DNA of 14,055 bases from a virus (lineage: Duplodnaviria > Heunggongvirae > Uroviricota > Caudoviricetes): IMG/VR virus record IMGVR_UViG_2690316097_000008. The stretch is one strand, 5' to 3'. Below the pieces are notes generated by a model. It searched no databases. It was not told the DNA's origin and was given only the letters and a program-made list of their open reading frames with translations. The position numbers and the translations under genes are program-made. Numbering within the stretch: the stretch's first letter is position 1; every line of letters starts with the position of its first letter. This document shows, piece by piece, positions 1 to 14,055 of this stretch.

Positions 1-83
1 GCCAAACTGCGATCGATTCAGATGCCATTTTGCAATCAGCGCCAGAACAGCAGCTGACAGGCCGTATTTGATTTTTGCGCTCA
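1..83 (-). CDS. Endolysin (phage lysozyme), N-terminal fragment running off the window start
   Basis: Reverse complement of 1..83 gives ATG at 83..81 and reads MSAKIKYGLSAAVLALIAKWHLNRSQFG, a short hydrophobic N-terminus as recalled for Qin/DLP12-type SAR endolysins; position downstream of the pinholin fits. Only 27 codons are visible and the ORF track does not list it. Confidence 0.45.
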
Positions 84-139
84 TGGATATTTATCAGGAT
101 GCTACCAATGAAAGATACTGGAAAGCCAACTGCAAAAAG

Positions 140-454
140 CTAACAACCCGTAATCGAGTTATCAGAACTGTTAATTTTTATGGTATACCGCGCCTCTGAA
201 CAGGGGCGCGTTTCTGGCAACAGCTCGTCCCCTTCACATAACCCGGCAGCAACATCCAAGAAGACCTGTCTGATGCTCCTTCTGGCTGCTGCCTCATAAA
301 ACTCCAGCGCGGCACCTTCAACACGGTCCAGCGAGATGTCCAGGTCAAAAATTTCACCGTCAAAGCGTTTTTTGTCCCGTAACGCTAAAGTTACCGTAAC
401 TTTATTCTCAAAATTGCGGATCCCTTTCACAATCAGTTCATAGTTTTGAGTCAT
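140..454 (-). CDS. Small phage protein between holin and endolysin, YdfR-like (DUF1327) by position and recalled sequence
   Basis: 104-aa ORF with ATG start at 454 and a GGGGAGAG Shine-Dalgarno overlapping the holin 3' end. It sits in the same position as ydfR in the E. coli K-12 Qin lysis cassette (essQ-ydfR-rrrQ). Confidence 0.7.
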   Translation of the reverse strand: MTQNYELIVKGIRNFENKVTVTLALRDKKRFDGEIFDLDISLDRVEGAALEFYEAAARRSIRQVFLDVAAGLCEGDELLPETRPCSEARYTIKINSSDNSITGC

Positions 455-458
455 TGAA

Positions 459-674
459 TTACTCTCCCCGTGCAGCCTTACGACGGTCCTCTCTGATTTT
501 GAAATACAGGTTAGTCAGATATGTCAGCAGCCCAAACAGCAGACTCCCCAGCACGCCTATTGCCGCCCACTGAGACGGGGAAACCCTGTCCAGCAACTGC
601 AGGAACCAGTAGCCCGTTCCCACCGCTGACGTGGTGTATGACACACCTGTTGTGATTTTTTCCATCTGGTACAT
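459..674 (-). CDS. S: Class II holin (pinholin), phage 21 S-like, with dual-start motif
   Basis: From the internal Met the product reads [71 protein letters not shown], nearly identical to the recalled phage 21 S21 pinholin. Two Met codons three residues apart match the S21 71/68 antiholin/holin arrangement. GGGAGA lies about 10 nt upstream; the track ORF 459..752 is an in-frame upstream extension with no RBS. Confidence 0.85.
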
Positions 675-824
675 ACCCCGTCTCCCGTTATCCGGAAGCT
701 GACAACAATAAAAAAAGCCACCAGTTAAGTACTGATGGCTCTGATAACTCATGCAGGCATCTCAGACGACCCACTGACACTACCGGTGAGTTTAACGATA
801 CCTTCCATTTGGCTGGCTCACTTT

Positions 825-2678
825 TTATGATGATGCCGGTGCATTTATCTCCAGCACCAGACTTTCTATCTCAACGCCATACGCTGCATTTTTGGTAATA
901 TCCGTCAGCGTCAGCGCATTCAGCCCCAGTGTCAGACTGTCTTTTATGACCTGGAATGCCGGGCCAGCCACTCCATTCAGTTTCGGAGTAACCGTGGCAC
1001 TGCCGGCGGTGAACACCAGCTCCAGCGTCAGCCAGTCGTTACTGTAATTCCCGAACTCGCCCAACTTTGTGTTTCCTGCTTTCTTGTGATGCATCAGATT
1101 CAGTTTGCCGTCTGTGGTCTGGGTGAAGAACGACATCAGGAACGGGTTACCAGTCCCGGTCATCGCCACGACGTCAGGTAACGCTACATCGGTATACAGA
1201 TAAATTCCCAGACCGAACTGGTTGTTGGTCAGTGCGCCTGACAGTCGAAACTTACAGCTCAGTCTGCCACCCCGTGTCAGCAGGGAGACTGCGTCATCCA
1301 CCGGGCGCGTCAGGGACCAGGCTTTATTGCTCTGCTTGGTGATCTTAAATACACCATCTGACAACTGAACTCCGCCATTCTTAATGCTCCAGCCCTGCGC
1401 AGCAGCGTCTCCGGCTGTCGGCAACAGGGAGATTGTGCGTATGGATGCATCTTCAGACGGCCCCGATGGCGTGTCGCCGCCGGGCGAGGGTTTGATTTCC
1501 GGTGCCTTACCACTAATGAAGGCTAAGGTGCGACCGGCTACGTTCAGAATAGCAGTTGCCATACGATCGGGAATAATGCCACGACGCGCCCATGAGCTGA
1601 AATGCGTCGGGCGATTTGATGATACCCAGTTTTTGTTCGTTCGGGATGCCGAACCGTAATAACCAGACCCGGCAATATCAGGATCTTCTGACGGGTTGTT
1701 TGTCGGTGTATTAACTCCGCTACCATCGGTCATAAAGGGAACAAAATAAATCTGCTGGGATTCTTTACCTTTATATGCACCATATACCACTTCATATTGC
1801 GTACCGTGTTCTTGTTTCCACGCGTATGTCGTGTCGCCACAAATCCAGGGGACTGATGCCGGACTTCCACCGTGACACTGCGCCGCCAGCCCGGCAAGGT
1901 CAGCACGGAACTGCTGTACCATTGCAAGAAATGCTGCTGGCTGCTGGGCGTAACTGGCATTCGTCATATCGAATTCCCCCTGCATCCAGCATATCGCCAG
2001 CAAAACGTTTTTCGGGTTTTTCTGCAATGCTGCCTTCGTGCGGAAAAGCAGATCCTGATATAACGGCTTACCCACTCCCCAGCGAGCCGAATCCTGACTG
2101 GCCCCCGTGGACTCGCTGAATGTCCCCTCCGTGCCCTGGGTGAATGCCGAACCACCACAACAGCATGGTACCAGCAGGATCCCCGCATTATTAGGGATAT
2201 ACGGAAGCAGTTTTTTGGCAATATGTAAGCCCTGTCCGACACAGCCGTACTGCCCTTTGCTCAGGTCAGCCCGGGGATGGTTAATCGTACTCATATCCTG
2301 AACATCATGCAGACAATGGTCAGCAGGAATGATGTCGTTAAATACGCATACTTCACCACCGGGAGTCACTGTGTTACGACGGGCCAGTTGCTTAATGCGC
2401 GGATGGGGCGCATCGTATGAATCCGGAAGCGGAAGACCTTCACCGTAAGCCATGGCATTGGATTGCCCGGCCAGTACGATGACGTAGTACCACTCCGGCT
2501 CAGTTGCACCACTGACGACCACATCACCTTCTGCTGCAATCGCCTGCATCAGGGTATAAGGGGTTATGGCCACCGGACTACCAAACGGCTGCCAGCCCTC
2601 CTTCAGTTTTTGTGTCAGTCGTTTCGCAAGGTCTGACGGCGATGCCGCCCTGACCACGTCATAGTGTTTAAATGCCAT
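825..2678 (-). CDS. nanS-p: Prophage sialate 9-O-acetylesterase NanS-p (N-terminal DUF1737-like region plus SGNH/SASA esterase domain)
   Basis: 617-aa ORF with ATG at 2678 and GGGAGGA 5 nt upstream. The block YYVIVLAGQSNAMAYGEGLPLPDSYDAPHPRIKQLARR...DIIPADHCLHDVQDMS...LLVPCCCGGSAFTQG...WMQGEFD matches recalled E. coli NanS/YjhS including the GQSN catalytic motif. Location upstream of the lysis genes is typical for lambdoid and Stx prophages. Confidence 0.9.
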   Translation of the reverse strand: MAFKHYDVVRAASPSDLAKRLTQKLKEGWQPFGSPVAITPYTLMQAIAAEGDVVVSGATEPEWYYVIVLAGQSNAMAYGEGLPLPDSYDAPHPRIKQLARRNTVTPGGEVCVFNDIIPADHCLHDVQDMSTINHPRADLSKGQYGCVGQGLHIAKKLLPYIPNNAGILLVPCCCGGSAFTQGTEGTFSESTGASQDSARWGVGKPLYQDLLFRTKAALQKNPKNVLLAICWMQGEFDMTNASYAQQPAAFLAMVQQFRADLAGLAAQCHGGSPASVPWICGDTTYAWKQEHGTQYEVVYGAYKGKESQQIYFVPFMTDGSGVNTPTNNPSEDPDIAGSGYYGSASRTNKNWVSSNRPTHFSSWARRGIIPDRMATAILNVAGRTLAFISGKAPEIKPSPGGDTPSGPSEDASIRTISLLPTAGDAAAQGWSIKNGGVQLSDGVFKITKQSNKAWSLTRPVDDAVSLLTRGGRLSCKFRLSGALTNNQFGLGIYLYTDVALPDVVAMTGTGNPFLMSFFTQTTDGKLNLMHHKKAGNTKLGEFGNYSNDWLTLELVFTAGSATVTPKLNGVAGPAFQVIKDSLTLGLNALTLTDITKNAAYGVEIESLVLEINAPASS

Positions 2679-2870
2679 GAATCCTCCCGGCCGGGATAAT
2701 ATTGTGAGTAAAATAAGGAGCGGGCTGAAGTCCGGAAGTTACAGGACAATGGCAGAAGAGAGACGACAGCCCGCAATTCGAAAAAGACCGCGCAGTTGCG
2801 CAGAGTGATTACTATGGGGTATTATTCGCCAGCTGAAATATTACTTCACGTTTTATTGTTTATTCCTTGC

Positions 2871-2900
2871 CGCCCGCGTCTCCCAGCGCGGGCTTTTTTT
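2871..2900 (+). terminator. Intrinsic terminator-like hairpin followed by T7 on the plus strand
   Basis: gcccgcg-tctcccag-cgcgggc at 2872..2893 followed by ttttttt at 2894..2900. Confidence 0.45.
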
Positions 2901-2909
2901 GCCCACAAG

Positions 2910-2935
2910 AAAACCCCTCCGGAGAGGGGCTAAAG
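2910..2935 (-). terminator. Terminator-like hairpin (cccctc-cgga-gagggg) with U-rich tail on the minus strand
   Basis: Stem-loop at 2914..2929; the minus-strand transcript reads ...cccctctccggagggg then ttttctt. A near-identical hairpin recurs at 4222..4239. Confidence 0.4.
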
Positions 2936-2987
2936 CCGCGTATCTGTATCATCATGCACATGGTGCCGGGTGCCTCCCGGTGAGTTC

Positions 2988-3111
2988 NNNNNNNNNNNNN
3001 NNNNNNNNNNNNNNNNNNNNNNNNNNNNNNNNNNNNNNNNNNNNNNNNNNNNNNNNNNNNNNNNNNNNNNNNNNNNNNNNNNNNNNNNNNNNNNNNNNNN
3101 NNNNNNNNNNN
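2988..3111. other. Run of N (124 nt), assembly gap or masked sequence
   Basis: Direct observation. It is flanked by sequence repeated at 4264..4288 on one side and by a second nanS-p start on the other. Confidence 1.
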
Positions 3112-3133
3112 CATCATAGTGTTTAAATGCCAT
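3112..3133 (-). pseudogene. 5' end of a second nanS-p-like gene, interrupted by the N run
   Basis: Reverse complement reads ATGGCATTTAAACACTATGATG = MAFKHYD, matching the nanS-p start at 2678..2657, with a GGTGGAAAG RBS-like sequence upstream. Confidence 0.5.
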
Positions 3134-3326
3134 GGTTCTTTCCACCATCTGAAAAATAATTCTTTAAAATACCTGACATGTAATACAGAAAAAACACAAA
3201 ACCATACCTTAAATAAAAACCTGATTATCAAGCAGATATGCATGGATAAACTACAAGACGAGATATAAACCACCCTGCATTTAAATAAACAATAAACAAC
3301 ATCAGAAAAATAATTCTGCTCTATGG

Positions 3327-3353
3327 TTTACATTCAAAAATATCATTTATACT
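3327..3353 (+). promoter_or_regulatory. Candidate sigma70 promoter for the AT-rich plus-strand ORF
   Basis: TTTACA at 3327..3332, 15-nt spacer, TATACT at 3348..3353, about 40 nt upstream of the ATG at 3394. Sequence-only prediction in AT-rich DNA, so the false-positive risk is high. Confidence 0.3.
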
Positions 3354-3393
3354 TTTCAGAACATCACCAGCAAGGCATAAACAAGGAAACTAA

Positions 3394-3729
3394 ATGAAGT
3401 GGATTGTGATTGATACAGTTATCCAGCCATCATGCGGAATATCTTTTTCAGTCATATGGAGTAAAATAAAATTAATAATCTGGTATCAATCGGATGCTTT
3501 CTTACCTCCTGAAAGTATATTTACACTGACTCACACAGGCATCATGCTCAATAACAAAGTGCTACCTGTAACCATTTACAACGTAGTACCATTCAATAAA
3601 ACATTCTGGAATTCAATCAAAAATAGCCAGGAATGCCCTACAAATACAGATAACGTATTGAATGAATGCTTTAATAACCGTTGCACTCTGCAAATATGTC
3701 CTTATGGACTAAAACAACAAAGTCCATAA
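3394..3729 (+). CDS. Hypothetical protein, AT-rich ORF of 111 aa with a Cys-rich C-terminus
   Basis: ORF with AAGGAAA Shine-Dalgarno 6-7 nt before the ATG. It is opposite in orientation to every other prophage gene here and its stop codon lies inside the 3699..3732 hairpin. No recognised family. Confidence 0.4.
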
Positions 3730-3765
3730 GGAGTTTACTCACATCTGACAAAATCAATATAAACA
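3582..3765. repeat. Direct repeat, copy 1 (3' part of the AT-rich ORF plus hairpin); copy 2 at 4046..4217
   Basis: 184 bp near-identical to 4046..4217 except that the hairpin loop is inverted. Copy 2 is preceded by N runs. Confidence 0.9.
3699..3732. repeat. Perfect 12-bp stem hairpin (tccttatggact / agtccataagga) with loop aaaacaacaa
   Basis: Direct observation; the loop is the exact reverse complement of the loop in copy 2. Confidence 0.9.
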
Positions 3766-3977
3766 NNNNNNNNNNNNNNNNNNNNNNNNNNNNNNNNNNN
3801 NNNNNNNNNNNNNNNNNNNNNNNNNNNNNNNNNNNNNNNNNNNNNNNNNNNNNNNNNNNNNNNNNNNNNNNNNNNNNNNNNNNNNNNNNNNNNNNNNNNN
3901 NNNNNNNNNNNNNNNNNNNNNNNNNNNNNNNNNNNNNNNNNNNNNNNNNNNNNNNNNNNNNNNNNNNNNNNNNNNNN
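3766..3977. other. Run of N (212 nt)
   Basis: Direct observation. Confidence 1.
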
Positions 3978-4003
3978 AAAAAGGCCCACCGGAGCGGATG
4001 GGC

Positions 4004-4045
4004 NNNNNNNNNNNNNNNNNNNNNNNNNNNNNNNNNNNNNNNNNN
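4004..4045. other. Run of N (42 nt)
   Basis: Direct observation; the island 3978..4003 between the two N runs carries another ccgga-containing hairpin-like sequence. Confidence 1.
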
Positions 4046-4217
4046 CATTCAATAAAACATTCTGGAATTCAATCAAAAATAGCCAGGAATGCCCTACAAA
4101 TACAGATAACGTATTGAATGAATGCTTTAATAACCGTTGCACTCTGCAAATATGTCCTTATGGACTTTGTTGTTTTAGTCCATAAGGAGTTTACTCACAT
4201 CTGACAAAATCAATATA
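4046..4217. repeat. Direct repeat, copy 2 of 3582..3765
   Basis: Near-identical to copy 1, then followed by the 4222..4239 hairpin. Confidence 0.9.
4155..4188. repeat. Same 12-bp stem hairpin as 3699..3732 but with the loop inverted (ttgttgtttt)
   Basis: Direct observation. Confidence 0.9.
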
Positions 4218-4444
4218 AACAGCCCCTCCGGAGAGGGGCTGGAGAGTGGCGCTATGTGCCATTGCATGGTGCCGGGTGCCTCCCGGTGAATTCAGTACCA
4301 GCACCTGAATCCGCGATTATCCCATATACCTACTCGCTGATTGCCCCTCCGCACAGGGGGATTCACCATGCCAGTTTCTTTTAACAAACTCCCCGCAAAC
4401 CAGACAACAGTCAACCGCCTGAATTGTGAAGTATTTAAAAATTT

Positions 4445-4525
4445 CTCCCGCTAACTGATACCCGGCTAACAGTCTGGCGTTTTCTTTTTCAGCAACGGGA
4501 AAGCAACAACCACCACACCCGCCAC
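4445..4525. repeat. 81-bp direct repeat, copy 1 (copy 2 at 4599..4679), separated by a 73-nt N run
   Basis: ctcccgctaactgatacccggctaacagtctggcgttttctttttcagcaacgggaaagcaacaaccaccacacccgccac occurs twice. Confidence 0.9.
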
Positions 4526-4598
4526 NNNNNNNNNNNNNNNNNNNNNNNNNNNNNNNNNNNNNNNNNNNNNNNNNNNNNNNNNNNNNNNNNNNNNNNNN
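4526..4598. other. Run of N (73 nt)
   Basis: Direct observation. Confidence 1.
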
Positions 4599-4679
4599 CT
4601 CCCGCTAACTGATACCCGGCTAACAGTCTGGCGTTTTCTTTTTCAGCAACGGGAAAGCAACAACCACCACACCCGCCAC
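4599..4679. repeat. 81-bp direct repeat, copy 2
   Basis: Identical to 4445..4525. Confidence 0.9.
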
Positions 4680-4786
4680 CAGCACACCGTCAGCCAGCAC
4701 TGACATTATCCGGCTGCTGCAATGCCATTCACAAAAACAGTAAGCAATCACTTTTTACCGTAACAGGTGATAATCCAGATATGTAT

Positions 4787-5113
4787 CTACCCCAGATGAG
4801 TAATCCGAAGTTCATCCATACCACAGGTCCTGGCTATTCTGTTGTACTCCTGAACAAGAGCAAATAATTCTGAATTAGCAACCATGAACTCATCGCAAAC
4901 CCTCTGTATAGCATCACTATTCAGAATAATAACGTCTCTTCCCGAAAGACGATCAGGAGTACAGAACAAAACTGTCAAACGGCTGAAGGCCTTTGCTCGT
5001 GCTGCATTGACTATATCAATACGCTGCCTAAGGATGAAACACCCCGACGCCTCATCAATATTCACTCTACCCACACCATATGAATGATAAATATTTAATG
5101 CTGAAAAAACCAT
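4787..5113 (-). CDS. Hypothetical ORF in the position occupied by stxAB in Stx phages; coding status uncertain
   Basis: Track ORF 4787..5140 starts at TTG; the first ATG is at 5113. Neither start has a convincing Shine-Dalgarno. Low-GC segment; no recognised family and no resemblance to Shiga toxin subunits as recalled. Confidence 0.3.
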   Translation of the reverse strand: MVFSALNIYHSYGVGRVNIDEASGCFILRQRIDIVNAARAKAFSRLTVLFCTPDRLSGRDVIILNSDAIQRVCDEFMVANSELFALVQEYNRIARTCGMDELRITHLG

Positions 5114-5250
5114 TAGACCGTATAACAAACACTCAATCAATACTTAACAGAACTTTTATTTTTGACAAACATAAAATATTTTCAACAATATCCTGAGCCA
5201 GGTATATTTCAGTATAAGGCTCTGCCGGAAGGAATCTGGAAGAATGAATA

Positions 5251-5327
5251 TGGCGCGCTGTACTGGATTCGAACCAGTGACCGATTGCTTAGAAGGCAAT
5301 TGCTCTGTCCGGCTGAGCTAACAACGC
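5251..5327 (-). tRNA. argO: tRNA-Arg (anticodon UCU)
   Basis: Manual fold of the reverse complement: acceptor GCGTTGT/ACAGCGC, D-stem GCTC/GAGC, anticodon stem ATTGC/GCAAT with loop CTTCTAA, T-arm ACTGG-TTCGAAT-CCAGT, encoded CCA. The symbol is assigned by position in the recalled 933W ileZ-argN-argO order and is tentative. Confidence 0.8.
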
Positions 5328-5340
5328 ATGATGCAGATAA

Positions 5341-5417
5341 TGGACCGCCATCGGGGACTTGAACCCCGCGCAGCCAGCTTCGAAGGCTGGCGCTCTTTCC
5401 TGATGAGCTAATGGCGG
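5341..5417 (-). tRNA. argN: tRNA-Arg (anticodon UCG)
   Basis: Manual fold: acceptor CCGCCAT/ATGGCGG, D-stem GCTC/GAGC, anticodon stem CCAGC/GCTGG with loop CTTCGAA, T-arm CGGGG-TTCAAGT-CCCCG, encoded CCA. Symbol by position and tentative; a C1 5' base is unusual. Confidence 0.7.
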
Positions 5418-5424
5418 TATGTGA

Positions 5425-5500
5425 TGGTGGCCCTTGCTGGATTTGAACCAGCGACCTGGCGATTATGAGTCGCTCGCTCTCACCACTGAGCTAAAGGGCC
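5425..5500 (-). tRNA. ileZ: tRNA-Ile2 (anticodon CAU, lysidine-type; could also be read as tRNA-Met)
   Basis: Reverse complement GGCCCTTTAGCTCAGTGGTGAGAGCGAGCGACTCATAATCGCCAGGTCGCTGGTTCAAATCCAGCAAGGGCCACCA is close to recalled E. coli ileX/ileY; anticodon loop CTCATAA. Confidence 0.8.
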
Positions 5501-5540
5501 GGGAGCCGCATAATAACGACGCGTAATTAATTCTTCAATA

Positions 5541-6599
5541 TCATCCGTTCTGGCTGACTAAATCCTGTACTTCCCGAACCGTCTGCTCAAAACGTTCAGT
5601 CTCCAGCTCAACGCCAATTGCACGACGCCCGAGCGCCAGTGCCGCTTTCACTGTCGAACCCAACCCCATGAAAAAATCTGCAATCAGGTCACCCGGACGA
5701 CTGCTAGCGCTGATTATCTGCTGCAGCATTTCTGCCGGTTTTTCGCACGGATGTTTCCCGGGATAGAACTGCACCGGTTTATGCGTCCACACATCGGTAT
5801 ACGGCACCTGCACCGTCACGCCAAAATACCGCCGCAGATGTTTATATTCACTCAGCAGCTCCGCATACTGCCGGTTCAGTGAGGTATACGTATCCACCAG
5901 CTGGTGGTGGAGCTTTTCCAGTTCACCACGCCGATGCTTCTCTTCTGCCACCCGGGCAAACAGCGCCTGTAATTTCAGATAATCGCTTTCATTCGGCAAC
6001 TGCCACTGACCGGCACTGAACCAGTGCGACACCATGTTTTTCTTTCCTGTGGCATCTGCAATCTGTTTTGCCGTTATCCCCAGGGCAGCTCGCGCATCAC
6101 GAAAGTAAGAAATCAGCGGGGCCATCACATGCTGTTTCAGTGCACTGCCCTTCGCCGCATACCCGGCATCTTTCGGACGATACGGCCCCTGATAATGTTC
6201 CGCGAACAGAATGCGCTCTGTGGCGGGGAAATACGCCCGCAGGCTTTCCTTGTTGCATCCGTTCCAGCGTCCGGACGGCTTCGCCCAGATAATATGGTTC
6301 AGCACACTGAAGCGTTCACGCATCATGATTTCGATATCAGATGCCAGGCGATGACCACAGAACAGGTAAAGACTTCCGGCAGGTTTCAGCACCCGCCAGA
6401 ACTGCGCCAGACACTGGTCCAGCCACTTCAGGTAATCATCGTCGCCCTTCCACTGGTTATCCCAGCCCTCAGGCTTCACTTTAAAGTACGGCGGGTCCGT
6501 GACTATCAGGTCAACAGAATTTTCGGGTAACGACCGGATAAATTCCAGGCAGTCGGCGTTGATTAACTCACAACTGGATATTTTTACAGCATTAAGCAT
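5541..6599 (-). CDS. Orphan DNA methyltransferase (beta-class; N6-adenine or N4-cytosine)
   Basis: 352-aa ORF with ATG start. DLIVTDPPY catalytic motif near the N-terminus and FFMGLGST (FxGxG AdoMet motif) near the C-terminus give the motif IV-before-I order of beta-class amino-MTases. No restriction endonuclease gene is adjacent. Weak Shine-Dalgarno. Confidence 0.85.
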   Translation of the reverse strand: MLNAVKISSCELINADCLEFIRSLPENSVDLIVTDPPYFKVKPEGWDNQWKGDDDYLKWLDQCLAQFWRVLKPAGSLYLFCGHRLASDIEIMMRERFSVLNHIIWAKPSGRWNGCNKESLRAYFPATERILFAEHYQGPYRPKDAGYAAKGSALKQHVMAPLISYFRDARAALGITAKQIADATGKKNMVSHWFSAGQWQLPNESDYLKLQALFARVAEEKHRRGELEKLHHQLVDTYTSLNRQYAELLSEYKHLRRYFGVTVQVPYTDVWTHKPVQFYPGKHPCEKPAEMLQQIISASSRPGDLIADFFMGLGSTVKAALALGRRAIGVELETERFEQTVREVQDLVSQNG

Positions 6600-6691
6600 G
6601 GATCATTAAGCCTGTCTCTGATAGGCTCATTCTGCTTTTGCGCAAAGCAGTGGGCCTGAGGTTTGCTTGTGAACCCAACGCATGAGCAGAT

Positions 6692-6722
6692 GGCTGGTGG
6701 GTGCCCCTAACACCCACCAGCC
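6692..6722 (-). other. Very stable hairpin, 12-bp perfect GC-rich stem with 7-nt loop, in the HTH-MTase intergenic region
   Basis: ggctggtgggtg-cccctaa-cacccaccagcc. No U-tract follows on the minus strand, so it is not a classic intrinsic terminator. Confidence 0.6.
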
Positions 6723-6735
6723 GCCCATTTACCAC

Positions 6736-6763
6736 AAATAAAAAAGCCTTCACTGCGGAAGGC
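6736..6763 (-). terminator. Intrinsic terminator downstream of the small HTH ORF
   Basis: Minus-strand RNA reads gccuuc-cgcagu-gaaggc followed by uuuuuuauuug; the hairpin overlaps the ORF stop codon. Confidence 0.6.
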
Positions 6764-6947
6764 GTCTGTAACAACCGAACTGATAGTCTGCCAGACCCGC
6801 CATAACCAGCTGGGTCAGTATTAACTGGCAGCGTTCGCGTGAAAGGTAAGTATTCTGCGCTATCTCCCCGACTGTCGCCGGTTCGGTAACGCTTAATTCA
6901 TTAAACACCACTCTGGCGGTTTCTGTCATATCCTGCTGTTTTAGCAT
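6750..6947 (-). CDS. Small helix-turn-helix protein (65 aa), putative transcriptional regulator
   Basis: ATG with AAGGAAAAG Shine-Dalgarno 6-7 nt upstream. The segment TVGEIAQNTYLSRERCQLILTQL has HTH character. It lies between the pR'/tR' region and the MTase. Confidence 0.6.
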   Translation of the reverse strand: MLKQQDMTETARVVFNELSVTEPATVGEIAQNTYLSRERCQLILTQLVMAGLADYQFGCYRRLPQ

Positions 6948-7063
6948 GTCTTTTCCTTTTCCGGTTAACGTGACACACCAATAACTCTTGTCGAAAAAGC
7001 CAGCAAGCTGAAAGACAGGTATTCACCGCCACCAGCGCGTTTACTGTACTGACGCGATTTCAG

Positions 7064-7091
7064 TCATAAAAAACCCGCTCGGCGGCGGGTT
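7064..7091 (-). terminator. tR'-like intrinsic terminator about 40-65 nt downstream of the late promoter start site
   Basis: Minus-strand RNA reads aacccgc-cgccga-gcggguu followed by uuuuuuaug (plus-strand hairpin 7072..7091 preceded by ataaaaaa). Confidence 0.6.
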
Positions 7092-7126
7092 GTAGAAACT
7101 CTTCTAACGTCAGGCATAAAACGCCC

Positions 7127-7166
7127 ATCGTTATGACGAATTTACCACAGATTCCGGAAAAATCAA
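7127..7166 (-). promoter_or_regulatory. pR'-like late promoter with lambda-type promoter-proximal pause element (Q utilisation region)
   Basis: Minus strand: -35 TTGATT (7166..7161), 16-nt spacer, -10 TAAATT (7144..7139), then CGTCAT and AACGATGGG at about +1..+9. Recalled lambda pR' is TTGACT...TAAATT TGACTC AACGATGGG. It starts 5 nt after the Q stop codon. Confidence 0.65.
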
Positions 7167-7171
7167 CCTTG

Positions 7172-7993
7172 TTACCTAGTTACCTTTTTTAACTGCCGCT
7201 CAGCCCATGCTTCTTCAATATCAAACCGGGTCACCAGCGCATCATAGAATTTCTTAACTGTTTTTTCCCATGACGCGCGTGTTATCTGGTTTGTCACCTC
7301 GCATATAGCATTAAATGCCTCCGTTGATGGTAGTCTTTCATAGCCACGACCACCACAACGCTGGCAGTCTCTGATAACAGGCATACCACGTTTTACCGAC
7401 TCTTCACGATGAATGGCGACACCACGCCCACGGCAATCCTTACAGGCGGTGGAAACCTCACCCTTTCCGCCACACTCCGGACAGGCAACTTTTACCACCT
7501 CCCTGACTTTTTTCCATTCTTCCCAGTAAGACGGATACACACCTTTCGTACACTTTGCCCATACCGGCGGCTTACCATCCGGATACTGGATCTTGTTTGT
7601 AAAAACCTCGCTTTCAATAAATTTTTTTCCGTGACAGCAGGGGCACTGTTTTTTGCTCGCCGCGCTACGGGCATAATCTTCAAACGCATACGAAGCCATA
7701 ATACGCATCACTGCCGGTTTTATTTCTGCCGGGAGTTTTCTTAACGCCGCCACGCGATCACACCGACTGAGTGCATATTCTGTCAGCAATTCTGTTGCCC
7801 GCTCTCTGTCATTCATACTAATGCCCATTTTCCCAAGGAACGCAGAAACCCCCATCTCAGCCCGATTCTGTGTCATGCCCTGCGCGGCCATCACATCAGT
7901 GATACTCAGCGCATCTTTCGACGTTGAGGCCGATGCATCAGTCAGGCCGGGGGATTTTGGGGAGTAGTATTTCGGTAAATCTTCCAGTTTCAT
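7172..7993 (-). CDS. Q: Late-gene antiterminator Q (QuuQ/Qin-type, zinc-binding), copy 1
   Basis: 273-aa ORF. N-terminus MKLEDLPKYYSPKSP...SITDVMAAQGM and C-terminus ...QLKKVTR match recalled E. coli QuuQ, with several CxxC pairs. Its start overlaps the rusA stop (ATGA) and the pR' promoter follows immediately downstream. Confidence 0.8.
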   Translation of the reverse strand: MKLEDLPKYYSPKSPGLTDASASTSKDALSITDVMAAQGMTQNRAEMGVSAFLGKMGISMNDRERATELLTEYALSRCDRVAALRKLPAEIKPAVMRIMASYAFEDYARSAASKKQCPCCHGKKFIESEVFTNKIQYPDGKPPVWAKCTKGVYPSYWEEWKKVREVVKVACPECGGKGEVSTACKDCRGRGVAIHREESVKRGMPVIRDCQRCGGRGYERLPSTEAFNAICEVTNQITRASWEKTVKKFYDALVTRFDIEEAWAERQLKKVTR

Positions 7994-8095
7994 TTTTTGA
8001 CCTGCCCTTCAAGCATTATGGGATAAATCTTCACCCCCAGACGTCCACCAGATACTGGCTGAGCACGAACGATATTGATTTCATCAAACTGCTCA
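7990..8095 (-). pseudogene. rusA: rusA 3' fragment (about 35 C-terminal codons), cut off by the N run
   Basis: Near-identical to the 3' end of the rusA copies at 8849..8955 and 10592..10700. Confidence 0.6.
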
Positions 8096-8106
8096 NNNNN
8101 NNNNNN
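8096..8106. other. Run of N (11 nt) at a duplication junction
   Basis: Separates the rusA 3' fragment from sequence internal to Q copy 2. Confidence 1.
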
Positions 8107-8852
8107 AATTTCTTAACTGTTTTTTCCCATGACGCGCGTGTTATCTGGTTTGTCACCTCGCATATAGCATTAAATGCCTCCGTTGATGGTAGTCTTTCAT
8201 AGCCACGACCACCACAACGCTGGCAGTCTCTGATAACAGGCATACCACGTTTTACCGACTCTTCACGATGAATGGCGACACCACGCCCACGGCAATCCTT
8301 ACAGGCGGTGGAAACCTCACCCTTTCCGCCACACTCCGGACAGGCAACTTTTACCACCTCCCTGACTTTTTTCCATTCTTCCCAGTAAGACGGATACACA
8401 CCTTTCGTACACTTTGCCCATACCGGCGGCTTACCATCCGGATACTGGACCTTGTTTGTAAAAACTACGCTTTCAATAAATTTTTCCCCATAGCAACAAG
8501 GGCACTGCTTTTTACTCGCTGCGCTGCGGGCATAATCCTCAAAAGCGTACGAAGCCATAATGCGCATCACTACCGGTTTTATTTCTGCCGGAAGTTTTCT
8601 CAACGCCGCCACACGATCGCACCGACTGAGTGCATAATCTGCCAGTAATTCTGTTGCCCGCGCCCTGTCATTCATACTGATGCCCATTTTCCCCAGGAAC
8701 GCAGAAAACCCCATCTCAGCCCGATTCTGTGTCATGCCCTGCGCGGCCATCACATCAGTGATACTCAGCGCATCTTTTGACGTTGAGGCCGATGCATCGG
8801 TCAGGCAAGGGGATTTTGGGGAGTAGTATTTCGGTAAATCTTCCAGTTTCAT
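8107..8852 (-). CDS. Q: Antiterminator Q, copy 2; the last ~25 codons are missing at the N-run junction
   Basis: About 96% amino-acid identity to copy 1 over about 248 residues, with scattered substitutions (G16C, V49F, E64A, H118Y and others), so it is a distinct paralog and not an exact duplicate. The track ORF 8031..8852 reads through the Ns into the rusA fragment. Confidence 0.75.
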
Positions 8853-9223
8853 TTTTTGACCTGCTCTTCATGCATTATGGGGTAAATCTTCACCCCCAGA
8901 CGTCCACCAGATACTGGCTGAGCACGAACGATATTGATTTCATCAAACTGCTCATCGTCCATTAACACTCCCGCATGTGTCAGTGCATCCAGTGGTGCTT
9001 TCAGGATATTGTCCAGGTCACGACGGCGCTTATCCGGTGGCTCTGCAATAATCTTTATCGCCAGTCTTCCGGACAGGCTTAATTTCAGTCGCTGCTGACG
9101 GACAATAAGCGCCACATCCCGGCGATAACGCTCACCGGCTTTTGATACAAAATATGTGTTGTCACGACGTCGCCAGTAAGTATTCACCGTCGGCGGATAA
9201 GGTAAAATAAACTCATGGCGCAT
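8849..9223 (-). CDS. rusA: Holliday junction resolvase RusA
   Basis: 124-aa ORF with ATG start. LPYPPTVNTYWRRR...PDKRRRDLDNILKAPLDALT matches the recalled RusA family including the catalytic Asp cluster. Its stop overlaps the Q start. Confidence 0.85.
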   Translation of the reverse strand: MRHEFILPYPPTVNTYWRRRDNTYFVSKAGERYRRDVALIVRQQRLKLSLSGRLAIKIIAEPPDKRRRDLDNILKAPLDALTHAGVLMDDEQFDEINIVRAQPVSGGRLGVKIYPIMHEEQVKK

Positions 9224-9480
9224 CAGCGCAGCACCTCCTGCACCAGTTTTTCAAACTTTCCGACTCTGGTTTCCAGCTCTGCCACACAGTCCACCAGCTC
9301 ATCTACTGCTTTCTGTGCGCGATGCTTCGCCTGCATCAGTTCCCGAAGCGCGGGTACCATATCTTTACGGATAGCGTCTTTTGTTATGCCCGTTTTTTCG
9401 AGTTGTTCAGCATGACGCAGCATTTCCTGCGCGTGTTTACGCAATTGTTCAGGGGTAAAAGTCATTGTCTGGTTGTTCAA
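9223..9480 (-). CDS. Hypothetical small phage protein, predicted helical
   Basis: Track start at 9480 is TTG with GGAG 9 nt upstream; the first ATG is at 9465 with no Shine-Dalgarno. Its stop overlaps the rusA start by 1 nt. Confidence 0.55.
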   Translation of the reverse strand: MNNQTMTFTPEQLRKHAQEMLRHAEQLEKTGITKDAIRKDMVPALRELMQAKHRAQKAVDELVDCVAELETRVGKFEKLVQEVLR

Positions 9481-9691
9481 AAGAAACGCTCCATCTTACT
9501 GCTGTCAGTTCGTTTATTACTGTATCTGCGCGGATTGCCGGGCTTCATGGGAGTGGAAAGCACCCGTGCACTTTCCTGGTCCACAGGCAGAAAATGTCCG
9601 TAGACTGGCCCCCTGAATCTCCAGACAACCAGTATCACTTAAATAAGTGATAGTCTTAATACTAGTTTTTAGACTAGTCATTGGAGTACAG

Positions 9692-10057
9692 ATGATTGAT
9701 GTCTTAGGGCCGGAGAAACGCAGACGGCGTACCACACAGGAAAAGATCGCAATTGTTCAGCAGAGCTTTGAACCGGGGATGACGGTCTCCCTCGTTGCCC
9801 GGCAACATGGTGTAGCAGCCAGCCAGTTATTTCTCTGGCGTAAGCAATACCAGGAAGGAAGTCTTACTGCTGTCGCCGCCGGAGAACAGGTTGTTCCTGC
9901 CTCTGAACTTGCTGCCGCCATGAAGCAGATTAAAGAACTCCAGCGCCTGCTCGGCAAGAAAACGATGGAAAATGAACTCCTCAAAGAAGCCGTTGAATAT
10001 GGACGGGCAAAAAAGTGGATAGCGCACGCGCCCTTATTGCCCGGGGATGGGGAGTAA
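9692..10057 (+). CDS. insC: IS2 transposase OrfA (InsC)
   Basis: [56 protein letters not shown]... matches recalled IS2 InsC; 121 aa from the ATG at 9692. Confidence 0.9.
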
Positions 10058-10431
10058 GCTTAGTCAGCCGTTGTCTCCGGGTGTCGCGTGCGCAGTTGCA
10101 CGTCATTCTCAGACGAACCGATGACTGGATGGATGGCCGCCGCAGTCGTCACACTGATGATACGGATGTGCTTCTCCGTATACACCATGTTATCGGAGAG
10201 CTGCCCACGTATGGTTATCGTCGGGTATGGGCGCTGCTTCGCAGACAGGCAGAACTTGATGGTATGCCTGCGATCAATGCCAAACGTGTTTACCGGATCA
10301 TGCGCCAGAATGCGCTGTTGCTTGAGCGAAAACCTGCTGTACCGCCATCGAAACGGGCACATACAGGCAGAGTGGCCGTGAAAGAAAGCAATCAGCGATG
10401 GTGCTCTGACGGGTTCGAGTTCTGCTGTGAT
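10015..10431 (+). pseudogene. insD: IS2 transposase OrfB (InsD), N-terminal part only
   Basis: The orfB frame reads ...[44 protein letters not shown]...[14 protein letters not shown] and then meets the N at 10432 and unrelated phage sequence. Confidence 0.75.
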
Positions 10432-10432
10432 N

Positions 10433-10595
10433 TCCCCAGGAACGCAGAAAACCCCATCTCAGCCCGATTCTGTGTCATGCCCTGCGCGGCCATCACATCA
10501 GTGATACTCAGCGCATCTTTCGACGTTGAGGCCGATGCATCAGTCAGGCCGGGGGATTTTGGGGAGTAGTATTTCGGTAAATCTTCCAGTTTCAT
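10433..10595 (-). pseudogene. Q: Antiterminator Q, N-terminal 54-codon fragment (copy 3), abutting the truncated IS2
   Basis: MKLEDLPKYYSPKSPGLTDASASTSKDALSITDVMAAQGMTQNRAEMGFSAFLG; the DNA matches copies 1 and 2 from about 10433 onward. Confidence 0.7.
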
Positions 10596-10972
10596 TTTTT
10601 GACCTGCCCTTCAAGCATTATGGGATAAATCTTCACCCCCAGACGTCCACCAGATACTGGCTGAGCACGAACGATATTGATTTCATCAAACTGCTCATCG
10701 TCCATTAGCAACCCCGCATGCGTCAGCGCATCCAGCGGCGCTTTCAGAATATTGTCCAGGTCACGGCGGCGCTTATCCGGTGGTTCTGCAATAATTTTTA
10801 TTGCCAACCTTCCGGACAGGCTTAATTTCAGCCGCTGCTGGCGAACAATAAGCGCCACTGCCCGGCGATAACGCTCCCCGGCTTTTGATACAAAATATGT
10901 GCTGCCACGACGACGCCAGTAAGTGTTCACCGTCGGCGGGTAAGGTAAAACAAATTCTATGCGCTCGGTCAT
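10592..10972 (-). CDS. rusA: Holliday junction resolvase RusA (second full copy)
   Basis: 126 aa, about 93% identical to the copy at 8849..9223. Its ATG directly follows the stop of the upstream DUF968-like ORF. Confidence 0.85.
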   Translation of the reverse strand: MTERIEFVLPYPPTVNTYWRRRGSTYFVSKAGERYRRAVALIVRQQRLKLSLSGRLAIKIIAEPPDKRRRDLDNILKAPLDALTHAGLLMDDEQFDEINIVRAQPVSGGRLGVKIYPIMLEGQVKK

Positions 10973-12031
10973 TTATGCTTTCCACTTCAGAACACCCGAA
11001 TTTCTCGCGTGCATTAAAAAACGAATCAGCAACAACAGCTGACTGCCGTGTTTCTCTTCAAAATCTTTTACTCCGGCATGTAGTTCGTTACGGCATTTAC
11101 GGCATAACGGAATAACAAACAAATCATCAGCCTTTGTTCCCATCCCTCCCAGTCCATGACCAATGATGTGATGCGGATCATCTGCCTGATTGCCACACGT
11201 CATGCATTTCTGCGTTTTTACCCAGCGCGTGTATACAGGCATCTCTTCCCGTTGTGATTTCTGGCGCTGGAGATACTGAGCCGGTGACTCCGGATCAACG
11301 GCAATGCTGACCACCGTCTTTTCCTGTGGTGGGTTCTGTTGCTGGTGGACGTGAGGCAGTAACGCAATATTTTTTGTGCGCTGCTTCAGTATGCTGGTGG
11401 CTGTCTGCTCTCCCGGTATGATGTCGCTTTCACTGTACACAGAGCGAATTTTTTCCGCACGCAACCCCAGCGAACGACGTAATACCGCTTCCGGTAGCGC
11501 GTCCGCCACCTGATTGCGGACCGCCCACCAGGATAATTCAGCCAGAGATAATTCACGCTCCTGCGTACCGCTTATTGCGTGACCGATGACGTCAATCATC
11601 CATGCTGACAGGTTTTGATGAGCAAGTTGCTCGAGTGATTCGGATGTCTGGTCACGCAGCTGGTTGTCGCAGTGCCAGCACAACACCATTGCGCCGGTAC
11701 CATAACGGTGAATGACGGTTTCGCTGTGATGATAATCGCCGTGTGGCCACTGGCAGGATTTAATATGGCGCAACAGCCAGTCAGACAATGCACCAGCACC
11801 ACCAGCAGCACGAATCACCCGTGCGTTACTGAAAAACGGCAGCAATGTTTTGTCTTCCACCAGCGGCTGGCGAGCGGCAGGAACGACCCCGGACGGCAGA
11901 TTACGCATGCTTTTTGGTTCCGGCTCCACCAGTATTCTGCCGTTATGGAATGCTGACATTGATTCACGGCCTGGCTTAACGATAACCAGACCGAGTTCCG
12001 GTACCAGAACAGGTCGAAGTAATACCCGCAC
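10973..12031 (-). CDS. Lambdoid prophage DUF968-family protein (YdfU-like) with a C-terminal Cys/His HNH-like motif
   Basis: 352-aa ORF. The C-terminus CMTCGNQADDPHHIIGHGLGG...LCRKCRNELH is zinc-finger/HNH-like. Position upstream of rusA-Q matches the Qin ydfU position. The start codon is GTG with GGAGG 4 nt upstream and overlaps the upstream ORF stop. Confidence 0.7.
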   Translation of the reverse strand: MRVLLRPVLVPELGLVIVKPGRESMSAFHNGRILVEPEPKSMRNLPSGVVPAARQPLVEDKTLLPFFSNARVIRAAGGAGALSDWLLRHIKSCQWPHGDYHHSETVIHRYGTGAMVLCWHCDNQLRDQTSESLEQLAHQNLSAWMIDVIGHAISGTQERELSLAELSWWAVRNQVADALPEAVLRRSLGLRAEKIRSVYSESDIIPGEQTATSILKQRTKNIALLPHVHQQQNPPQEKTVVSIAVDPESPAQYLQRQKSQREEMPVYTRWVKTQKCMTCGNQADDPHHIIGHGLGGMGTKADDLFVIPLCRKCRNELHAGVKDFEEKHGSQLLLLIRFLMHARNSGVLKWKA

Positions 12032-12032
12032 A

Positions 12033-12311
12033 TTACCTCCAGATCCGTTGCTGGAATGTGCGGGACGGACGCGTTGGCCGTTCGGAGTAAGGGAGCCTGA
12101 CGGAGATTATCCAGTGACGGTAGTCGAGGCTAAGGGCTTTTTTAACCTCGCATCCGCGCCTGCGGTAACACTGAATGAGCCATTCGGCCTGTTCTTCAGT
12201 GCATGGGGGATGCTGGTACCAATCAGATTTAAATGCGTGAGAGCGCCGCCCGTGCCTGCTGGCAAAGACGGCTGAATTATCAGAATTGTGTAGTCTGGAA
12301 TTTTGCGCCAT
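12033..12311 (-). CDS. Hypothetical Arg-rich small protein (92 aa)
   Basis: ATG with GGAGAAAG Shine-Dalgarno; translationally coupled to the DUF968-like ORF. No family recognised. Confidence 0.5.
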   Translation of the reverse strand: MAQNSRLHNSDNSAVFASRHGRRSHAFKSDWYQHPPCTEEQAEWLIQCYRRRGCEVKKALSLDYRHWIISVRLPYSERPTRPSRTFQQRIWR

Positions 12312-12377
12312 CGGCTTTCTCCGGTGGCACAGTGTTACTCAACAGGGGTTCAGCCCTGCGCTGAATTGTAGATGAAT

Positions 12378-12638
12378 TCACTCATCTTCAAAAGCAGAAA
12401 AACCAGCCTTAATCCCAGCTTCTTTCAGAGACGGCAACGATGTGACAAATTCATTTGCACGCGAAATAAAACCATCCGTCACAAGCCCATCCACAAAATG
12501 AATTAACGCAGCTCCACTCTTCCTTTGTTGAGACTGTAAACATTTAATACGGCAGTGGCTGACAATAGCGCCATTCTCAACGCGCACAGTATAGAGGCCA
12601 TCTTCACTAAAAATTTCACGTAATTCTTCGATTTTCAT
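12378..12638 (-). CDS. Hypothetical small protein (86 aa from the ATG)
   Basis: ATG at 12638 with GGAAGGA Shine-Dalgarno 8 nt upstream. It sits between hokD and the DUF968-like gene, the slot occupied by rem in the K-12 Qin prophage; the product was not compared with Rem. Confidence 0.55.
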   Translation of the reverse strand: MKIEELREIFSEDGLYTVRVENGAIVSHCRIKCLQSQQRKSGAALIHFVDGLVTDGFISRANEFVTSLPSLKEAGIKAGFSAFEDE

Positions 12639-12754
12639 CAACAGAATCCTTCCAGATAAATAGCACTCCCCTGTTCGGGGTCCATCCCTCTTCTCCCTGC
12701 GCGCTACTTAAGTATTTTTGATTCTATTCCGGCACCATCTAAAACTTCAAACGC

Positions 12755-12790
12755 GTTGAAAATAAAAACAAAAACCCGCCGAAGCGGGTT
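12755..12790 (-). terminator. Intrinsic terminator downstream of hok
   Basis: Minus-strand RNA reads aacccgc-uucg-gcggguu followed by uuuguuuuuauuuu. Confidence 0.65.
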
Positions 12791-12858
12791 AAGTGTGGGT
12801 GCATTGAGGATGCCTGACCCATCAGAGGTGGCGAGGGATTTCTCCCCCGCCTGGTCTC

Positions 12859-13014
12859 TTACTCCTCAGGTTCGTAAGCTGTGAAGACAGCGACCTCCGT
12901 CTGGCCGGTTCGAATTCGTACCTCGCAGAGGTCTTTCCTCGTTACCAGTGCCGTCACTATGACGGTTAAACAGATGACGATCAGGGCGATTAACATCGCC
13001 TTTTGCTGCTTCAT
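12859..13014 (-). CDS. hokD: Hok/Gef-family type I toxin, HokD (RelF)-like, 51 aa
   Basis: MKQQKAMLIALIVICLTVIVTALVTRKDLCEVRIRTGQTEVAVFTAYEPEE matches recalled E. coli HokD. AGGAG lies 9 nt upstream of the ATG at 13014. The track ORF extends in frame to an ATG at 13071 with its own GAGG. Confidence 0.85.
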   Translation of the reverse strand: MKQQKAMLIALIVICLTVIVTALVTRKDLCEVRIRTGQTEVAVFTAYEPEE

Positions 13015-13305
13015 AGCCTGCTTCTCCTTGCCTTTCGGCACGTAAGAGGCTAACCTAGATTTGCCGTTCATAGATTGAGCCTCAGATTAATGTTAAGCGT
13101 CTTGCCGGACGCGTAATGTTAACTGGGGCTTTTCTCTATCTGCCTTTTGGTGTTCATGCCTGAGACAGATAGCCTCAAGCACCCGCTGCAATTCTACTTA
13201 ACTCTCCTTTTCCCGCAAACCGTTTTTATCCCCAGCGGCAAATCGAATACACCACCAGCGCCACCGCCATCGCAATTCCTACCGTTGTTAATGCTTCAGG
13301 CCAGG

Positions 13306-13650
13306 TCATCGTAAAATATCCTCCACGCTTATCAGTCCGTTCCGCTCCAGATAACTCATCGCCTTATCCGGTAATTTGCAGTCTGGCTTCGCTTTTCTCA
13401 GTTGCCAGGTTAACTGCTTTACCAGCATGGTTAACTCATCGACCAGACGCTGATATCCCACTGGTTTGTATTCATGCAATTTACCGGCTGGCTCTGCTGC
13501 CAGCGATACCAGTGCGATTTCCAGAACAGCAATATCCATCTTATATGTGCGGATGATGTCATGGTCGATTGTGCCCGGTATGCACAGTCTCTGTGCTTCA
13601 ATAGTCTCCTCTGCGTGAGCTATTAACTGCTCTCTGGTAAAAGTCGTCAT
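13306..13650 (-). CDS. Hypothetical phage protein (114 aa)
   Basis: ATG overlaps the stop of the upstream 55-aa ORF (ATGA). Its N-terminal half is paralogous to that ORF. Confidence 0.6.
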
Positions 13651-13814
13651 GCCGTAGCCCCTTCTTGATATTTTTCAAACCAGAACACAACCGGCTCTGC
13701 TTCCAGCGATGCCAGCGCAATCCGTGCCAGTTCCATTTGTTCACCACGGGTAAGCCCGTTTTCAAGCGGGTTTTTAATGAACAATTCAATACGTTCTTTG
13801 GTAATAGTGGTCAT
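13647..13814 (-). CDS. Hypothetical small protein (55 aa), paralog of the N-terminal half of the 114-aa protein
   Basis: Manually translated: [55 protein letters not shown], with AAGGAG 6 nt upstream of the ATG at 13814. Absent from the ORF track because it is under 60 aa. Confidence 0.55.
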
Positions 13815-13824
13815 GTGTTACTCC

Positions 13825-14055
13825 TTAACCCGCAGTGCTTTCAACTGATGAGGGGAACAAAATCTTTTCATCAAACCCTGCATTCATATCATGAACAGCA
13901 ACACACCAATCCATCGACGAACGATTATCAAGAGCCTCCATGATTTCATCCATGCGGCGTAGGTCATACAGGTAAATGCTTTTATCGCCAATGGTGTAAA
14001 AGCCAATTTTTTTCGGTGATGGATGAGGTGTACTGGCAATAGCGGACACTACCAT
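13825..14055 (-). CDS. Hypothetical protein, ORF reaching the window end (possibly N-terminally truncated)
   Basis: ORF with ATG at the last window bases; upstream context is not visible. Same strand and tight spacing with the downstream small ORFs. Confidence 0.4.
   Translation of the reverse strand: MVVSAIASTPHPSPKKIGFYTIGDKSIYLYDLRRMDEIMEALDNRSSMDWCVAVHDMNAGFDEKILFPSSVESTAG

Follow-up and report, generated by a model that had tools for sequence, protein, structure and literature searches.

False duplications, in which one locus is written twice in an assembly and the renderings are separated by gaps, are a documented assembly error, and gaps between the duplicates are their recognised mark (Kelley & Salzberg 2010, PMC2864568; Ko et al. 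2022, PMC9516828). Sequence in inverted orientation can also appear at hairpins. An inter-strand template switch inverts hairpin loops, including those of bacterial rRNA (Löytynoja & Goldman 2017, PMC5453318; Mönttinen & Löytynoja 2022, PMC8794818). Artefacts of library preparation that put sequence from the opposite strand at inverted repeats and in the centres of palindromes have been described as well (Tanaka et al. 2020, PMC6941819; FADE preprint, bioRxiv 10.1101/2020.01.30.927491; PDSM model, PMC10908179). Two orientations of a segment bounded by inverted repeats are further known from the flip/flop hairpins of parvoviruses and AAV and from the Hin, Gin and Fim switches. Quasipalindrome template switching occurs in Escherichia coli.

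We analysed a stretch of 14,055 nt (the window) from a tailed phage record (IMG/VR IMGVR_UViG_2690316097_000008). An initial annotation had described a hairpin with two repeat copies in one molecule, the loop of one copy being inverted. Our analysis makes it very likely that one locus was falsely duplicated and that the flip is the product of a non-programmed strand switch. That the "two repeat copies" are an assembly artefact is held with still greater confidence.

Results and discussion

Hairpins at the 3' end of iraM

Both hairpins were found at the positions and with the sequences first annotated (Table 1). Their stem arms, TCCTTATGGACT and AGTCCATAAGGA, pair at 12/12 positions and are the same in the two hairpins, and the two 34-mers are 100% reverse-complementary to each other. 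The surrounding 176-nt blocks were compared position by position and had 10 mismatches, at 3711-3720 versus 4167-4176. The remainder consisted of perfect direct repeats (3590-3710 = 4046-4166 and 3721-3765 = 4177-4221). All ten loop positions were reverse-complemented and none of the 166 flank positions was changed, which bears out the earlier description of an identical stem, an exactly reverse-complemented loop and identical flanks. Since the ten changed bases form an exact reverse complement and the 166 flank bases are unchanged, chance is excluded. The loop has truly been inverted, and inversion of the entire 34-bp palindrome would give the same result. As RNA, the flipped and native hairpins fold equally well (-17.9 vs -17.5 kcal/mol; z = -4.2 for the native form).

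The native hairpin overlaps the iraM stop codon and the 10 codons before it. The iraM product matches Pfam PF11183, and "anti-adapter protein IraM" is the RefSeq label below the match in 1,446 genomes. Exactly the IraM protein of the window is carried on at least 999 contigs, from Shigella sonnei and other records. In the truncated second rendering of iraM, the tail is ...GLCCFSP-stop. The flip turns KQQ in the tail of IraM into CCF, keeping the reading frame and changing three residues. The altered C-terminus reported initially (GLKQQSP versus GLCCFSP) was confirmed both in the ORF at 3394-3729 and in the partial second copy.

The left arm of the palindrome encodes a conserved P-Y-G-L, as seen when window 3699-3732 is compared with the homologous loci L118:480-640 and L119:480-640. 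The right arm, its exact reverse complement, supplies Ser-Pro-stop and with it the QQSP extension of the window allele. The O157 allele ends in GRK, as opposed to this QQSP extension, and the C-terminus of K-12 IraM is presumably GLK. In the OkiPb01705 allele, which is 88.8% identical, 6/12 stem pairs are kept. The hairpin was not found in the O157 iraM allele, and a T-run 3' of the stem was not found in the window sequence. A conserved functional RNA or a terminator hairpin was rejected, given the decay of the stem in these divergent alleles and the absent T-run. The perfect palindrome appears to be the derived state, and the comparison of alleles makes the hairpin look like the creation of an older template-switch event.

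Many public IraM entries are partial and cut by contig ends (P0014, P0005-P0011). Entry P0014 (104 aa), for example, stops at ...ICPY, within the palindrome's left arm. Breaks in or close to the iraM locus are frequent in short-read assemblies.

Table 1 Features of the window and their counterparts in the Shigella sonnei 53G prophage loci X (L122) and Y (L111).
Feature	Position in window	Strand	Reference counterpart	Details
iraM	3394-3729	+		anti-adapter protein gene, prophage moron, 111 aa, ends ...GLKQQSP-stop
Native hairpin	3699-3732	+		tccttatggact-aaaacaacaa-agtccataagga; 12-bp perfect stem, 10-nt loop AAAACAACAA
Inverted-loop hairpin	4155-4188	+		tccttatggact-ttgttgtttt-agtccataagga; loop TTGTTGTTTT
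First rendering of 176 nt	3590-3765	+		tail of contig B (3112-3765), ends at last base before N-run
Second rendering of 176 nt	4046-4221	+		head of contig C (4046-4525), starts directly after N-run
Scaffold gap between hairpin copies	3766-4045			N-runs 3766-3977 and 4004-4045 enclosing 26-nt island 3978-4003
Second gap-flanking redundancy	4445-4679			4445-4525 = 4599-4679, 81 nt, 0 mismatches, around 73-N run 4526-4598
Third gap-flanking redundancy	7248-8954			Q antiterminator region, 7248-8095 (X) and 8107-8954 (Y) around 11-N run 8096-8106
STnc100 sRNA family match	4211-4400	-		Rfam, 132 bits
Tile	1-2987		locus X (L122)	2987/2987 identical
Tile (contig B)	3112-3765		locus Y, L111 2719-3372	654/654 identical
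Tile (island)	3978-4003		locus X, L122 3501-3476 and L107 5619-5644	26/26 identical
Tile (contig C)	4046-4525		locus Y, L111 3197-3676	470/480; all ten mismatches are the loop
Tile	4599-5327		locus Y	100% identical
Tile, same contig as 4599-5327	5238-8095		locus X	99.76% identical; joined via shared tRNA-Arg
Tile	8107-9731		locus Y	99.94% identical
Tile	10433 onward		locus X	99.55% identical

Gaps and gap-flanking repeats

Six N-runs interrupt the window, at 2988-3111, 3766-3977, 4004-4045, 4526-4598, 8096-8106 and 10432. The initial annotation mentioned neither the runs between the hairpin copies nor the repeat blocks ending and starting at gap edges. Repeat edges are gap edges at 3765/N and N/4046, and likewise at 4525/N and N/4599, at 8095/N and N/8107, and at N/10433. 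Both copies of the 81-nt repeat map to L111 3596-3676. The two blocks around the 11-N run align without gaps over 848 nt with 38 scattered mismatches and are two alleles of the Q region, one (7248-8095) mapping to L122 and the other (8107-8954) to L111. Positions 10433-10697, which follow immediately on the single N at 10432, repeat 7831-8095.

Deliberate masking of contiguous real sequence was rejected as an explanation of the N-runs. The 73-N run is flanked by an 81-nt repeat whose presumed twin is unmasked, and one of the runs is a single N. The 26-nt island and its neighbours also come from different loci, at distances that fit neither reference. The equal spacings of 455 and 456 nt between two repeat pairs were likewise rejected as a real tandem unit, the segments 2680-2987 (locus X) and 3135-3442 (locus Y) being unrelated.

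Tiling onto two Shigella sonnei prophage loci

For BLAST comparison, two loci of S. sonnei 53G (HE616528.1) served as references: locus X (iraM-less, at ~2.09 Mb) and locus Y (iraM-bearing, at ~1.32 Mb), which lie ~0.78 Mb apart. By exact-protein look-up, the IraM and SASA-esterase alleles of the window belong to different prophage remnants of this strain. The window is colinear with closed E. coli references apart from step-backs at the gaps, after each of which it returns on the reference, by 23, 176, 81, ~800 and ~540 nt. Contigs B and C overlap by 176 nt on L111, and hairpin copies 1 and 2 both map to its single-copy stretch 3197-3372. The native loop orientation is 100% identical to S. 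sonnei 53G. One iraM 3' end was present at the locus in each reference examined (L001, L120, L111). The contig at 4599-8095 is itself chimeric and changes locus inside the shared tRNA-Arg gene. Scaffold joins were located at 2988, 3766, 4004, 4526, 5238-5327, 8096 and 10432 of the window (1-14055).

These alignments indicate that the whole window is a chimeric scaffold alternating between two related lambdoid prophage remnants. It is a gapped draft scaffold, and its source is most likely S. sonnei or a strain nearly identical to it.

False duplication of one locus

The copies are separated by N-runs, the repeat edges fall on gap edges and both copies map to one stretch; the duplication is therefore regarded as an assembly artefact. 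There is one hairpin locus and not two, the single-copy 3' end of iraM having been written twice. The assembler or scaffolder interleaved contigs of loci X and Y, leaving consecutive Y contigs that overlap by 176 nt and 81 nt unmerged and inserting Ns between them. With the overlapping Y contigs unmerged, the iraM 3' end and its terminal palindrome appear twice.

As in described false duplications (PMC2864568, PMC9516828), the blocks in the window are separated by Ns, bounded by contig ends and single-copy in finished genomes, and the hairpin renderings differ by a small variant that blocked merging. Unlike the false duplications of diploid haplotypes, the competing sequences here are two paralogous prophage loci of a haploid bacterium. 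The window also differs from cases of variant-blocked merging in that its perfect 81-nt overlap was left unmerged too, which argues for the scaffolder, and not the variant, as the general cause.

The initial reading was a real tandem duplication of ~456 bp, with two hairpins in one molecule and one of them flipped. In its favour are the two copies in the window, 456 nt apart from start to start, a support that comes from the window alone. Against this, the spacer consists of Ns and a 26-nt fragment of the other locus, the repeat ends fall on gap edges, each of the remaining gaps of the window has a redundancy of this kind as well, and the closed references named above hold one copy at the locus. 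We consider such a duplication very improbable. The supposed two copies in one molecule flank N gaps and both correspond to the same L111 stretch. Mis-assembly, which the initial annotation had itself named as speaking against its reading, is close to what was found, namely an interleaved mis-scaffold.

Gene context and RNA elements

The genes are ordered as in a lambdoid late region, with the Q antiterminator, a DNA methyltransferase, tRNAs, DUF3927, iraM (on the opposite strand), a SASA-family esterase, a holin and a lysozyme. Annotated neighbours in homologous loci also include RusA and DUF968. Tandem Q genes (7172-7993 and 8031-8852) lie in the chimeric scaffold.

The STnc100 segment is common to both prophage loci, whose haplotypes X and Y come together at ~4217 and separate at ~4441. 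The contigs end at the edges of this shared segment, as would be expected of a short-read assembler. The STnc100 match lies between the tRNA/DUF3927 region and iraM and ends in a GC-rich hairpin (4220-4241). A partial STnc100 copy (80%) was found at 2914-2987. By its position, the segment may be a candidate for the late-promoter leader/terminator region of lambdoid phages.

A match to the sok antitoxin RNA was found at 13009-13184 on the minus strand (Rfam, 112 bits), and the closest complete genome has a hokD toxin gene annotated at the corresponding position (L120 11457-11612). Three tRNA genes lie within 5251-5500 on the minus strand: Arg-TCT, Arg-TCG and one with a CAT anticodon. The last was called Met by ARAGORN, and its homologue is Ile in RefSeq. 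The middle tRNA region differs between loci Y and X.

In E. coli O157:H7 EC4115, a divergent iraM adjoins the Stx2c B-subunit gene (L119, NC_011353.1 2695349-2696307). From this neighbourhood it follows that the iraM moron occupies the slot of the late region that holds the Shiga toxin genes in Stx phages.

Loop orientation in public sequences

With a 102-nt query centred on the flipped hairpin, the flipped loop was found in none of the 1,419 complete E. coli genomes with the locus. The best identity to this query was 90.2%, which corresponds to all ten loop bases being mismatched in every genome; the native loop was the only orientation seen in the complete genomes. None of the four phage records with the locus had the flipped loop. 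An exact flipped 42-mer gave 0 matches in IMG/VR, GTDB species representatives and JGI metagenomes, and the normal 42-mer gave 105 matches in IMG/VR.

At the protein level, the flipped form of the window's own allele was absent among ~15 billion proteins, while the normal form is found on at least 999 contigs. The 45-aa fragment encoded by copy 2 was also not on record among public proteins. For the commonest E. coli IraM allele, the flipped form is recorded once and the normal form on at least 1,000 contigs. The sole flipped record (P0002; WP_427045945.1 / MGE2656410.1) is a full-length protein from one 8,902-nt E. coli draft contig, in the background of an iraM allele different from that of the window. 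Sixteen further flipped IraM backgrounds were absent, comprising 13 full-length alleles (the window's own among them) and three N-terminally shortened ones. The flip is extremely rare, yet it has been recorded independently at least once. The flip-flop population considered in the initial annotation found no support in the comparison with complete genomes (0/1,419 flipped).

Origin of the loop inversion

The difference between the two renderings suggests that the read set held molecules with both loop orientations. Strand switching across the perfect 12-bp inverted repeat, put forward initially as template switching or recombination, is the right class of mechanism; the accompanying premise of two copies did not stand. 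Two strand switches using the arms as homology are the only simple route to a 10-nt inversion that leaves arms and flanks untouched. The left arm would be copied, followed by a jump to the complementary strand, copying of the loop backwards and a jump back.

A programmed invertible element, acting as a flip-flop or phase switch that toggles the IraM C-terminus, would be consistent with the flip keeping the reading frame and changing three residues. Against it, no recombinase or invertase gene was found within ~4-5 kb on either side in three annotated homologous loci. One orientation is essentially fixed (0/1,419 genomes flipped; for the commonest allele, at least 1,000 normal contigs versus one flipped), and the palindrome is not conserved in divergent iraM alleles. 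To our knowledge, a segment of 10 bp is far too short for known invertases. The locus differs from the Hin, Gin and Fim switches in having no invertase gene nearby, a segment of 10 bp and not hundreds, and one fixed orientation. On these grounds, a programmed switch has next to no probability. A terminal flip/flop hairpin was also rejected: unlike in parvoviruses and AAV, the hairpin is internal to the prophage and not at a genome terminus.

For a non-programmed flip, an origin in vitro or during assembly is somewhat more likely, a variant arising by template switching during replication in vivo is distinctly less so, and any other origin is improbable. In vitro, inverted repeats would fold back or pair with the other strand in fragmentation, end repair or PCR. 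Of the two fold-back chimeras, one would supply the junction from the left flank through the stem into the inverted loop and the other that from the inverted loop through the stem into the right flank. At k of ~35 or less, a de Bruijn graph could merge both kinds into one cleanly flipped path. A short-k, scaffolded and gap-filled short-read assembly would fit the single-N gap and the 26-nt contig island. As in the known library artefacts (PMC6941819; 10.1101/2020.01.30.927491; PMC10908179), the aberrant bases here represent the opposite strand and form a multi-nucleotide cluster central in a perfect palindrome. Unlike those artefacts, which are low-frequency chimeras at the read level and usually run into the wrong-strand flank, the flip is flank-correct and present at the contig level. 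Contig C has correct flanks on both sides of the flipped loop, which requires that one molecule switched twice or that the two kinds of chimera were joined in a small-k graph. A counterpoint to an in-vitro origin is that fold-back artefacts are normally single-switch chimeras (flank, hairpin, reverse complement of the same flank). Pure de Bruijn ambiguity in the absence of aberrant reads was rejected by reasoning, as the stem is only 12 bp and an unrealistic k of ≤13 would be needed.

Alternatively, template-switch loop inversion in vivo gave a flipped iraM allele beside the normal one, in a subpopulation or as a second iraM copy, and both alleles were kept as separate contigs. This concerns the origin of the flip only and is compatible with false duplication. 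For perfect hairpins, loop inversion by template switching is on record, bacterial cases included (PMC8794818), and the locus shares with the described cases a perfect inverted repeat and a loop turned into its exact reverse complement with stems and flanks intact (PMC5453318, PMC8794818). It differs in its 10-nt loop, the reported ones being mostly of 4 nt with a few of 7-8 nt, and in its position at a coding 3' end; an event in the cell is putative here. The same flip occurs in a full-length protein from an independent E. coli draft whose iraM allele is another one (P0002), which implies that the flip can be a consensus-level state and is possibly real, and in ~10% of the locus-bearing E. 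coli genomes iraM is present at more than one place. On the other side, the S. sonnei records listed show iraM at one place each, making a paralogous second copy unlikely, and a spontaneous event would be assembled only if a high fraction of the clonal culture carried it. None of the 1,419 closed genomes is flipped, and the flipped form of the window allele is not on record, as against at least 999 contigs with the normal form. Taken together, we regard an in-vivo flip as possible and rather unlikely. The single iraM place in S. sonnei and the high culture fraction needed favour the technical origin. It is more doubtful still that the iraM 3' palindrome is a natural template-switch hot spot, with both orientations present in the sequenced Shigella culture and, independently, in E. 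coli (WP_427045945.1), and KQQ turned into CCF each time.

Implications

Repeats that border on N-runs in a draft scaffold should not be given a biological interpretation. Every apparent duplication or gene order in the window is suspect, that of the tandem Q genes included. At perfect palindromes, sequence from the opposite strand can find its way into reads and assemblies. If the flip did arise in vivo, it would add one more natural example of an already described mutation type. Its effect would be minor, a change of three residues in the non-conserved C-terminal tail of a prophage-borne IraM.
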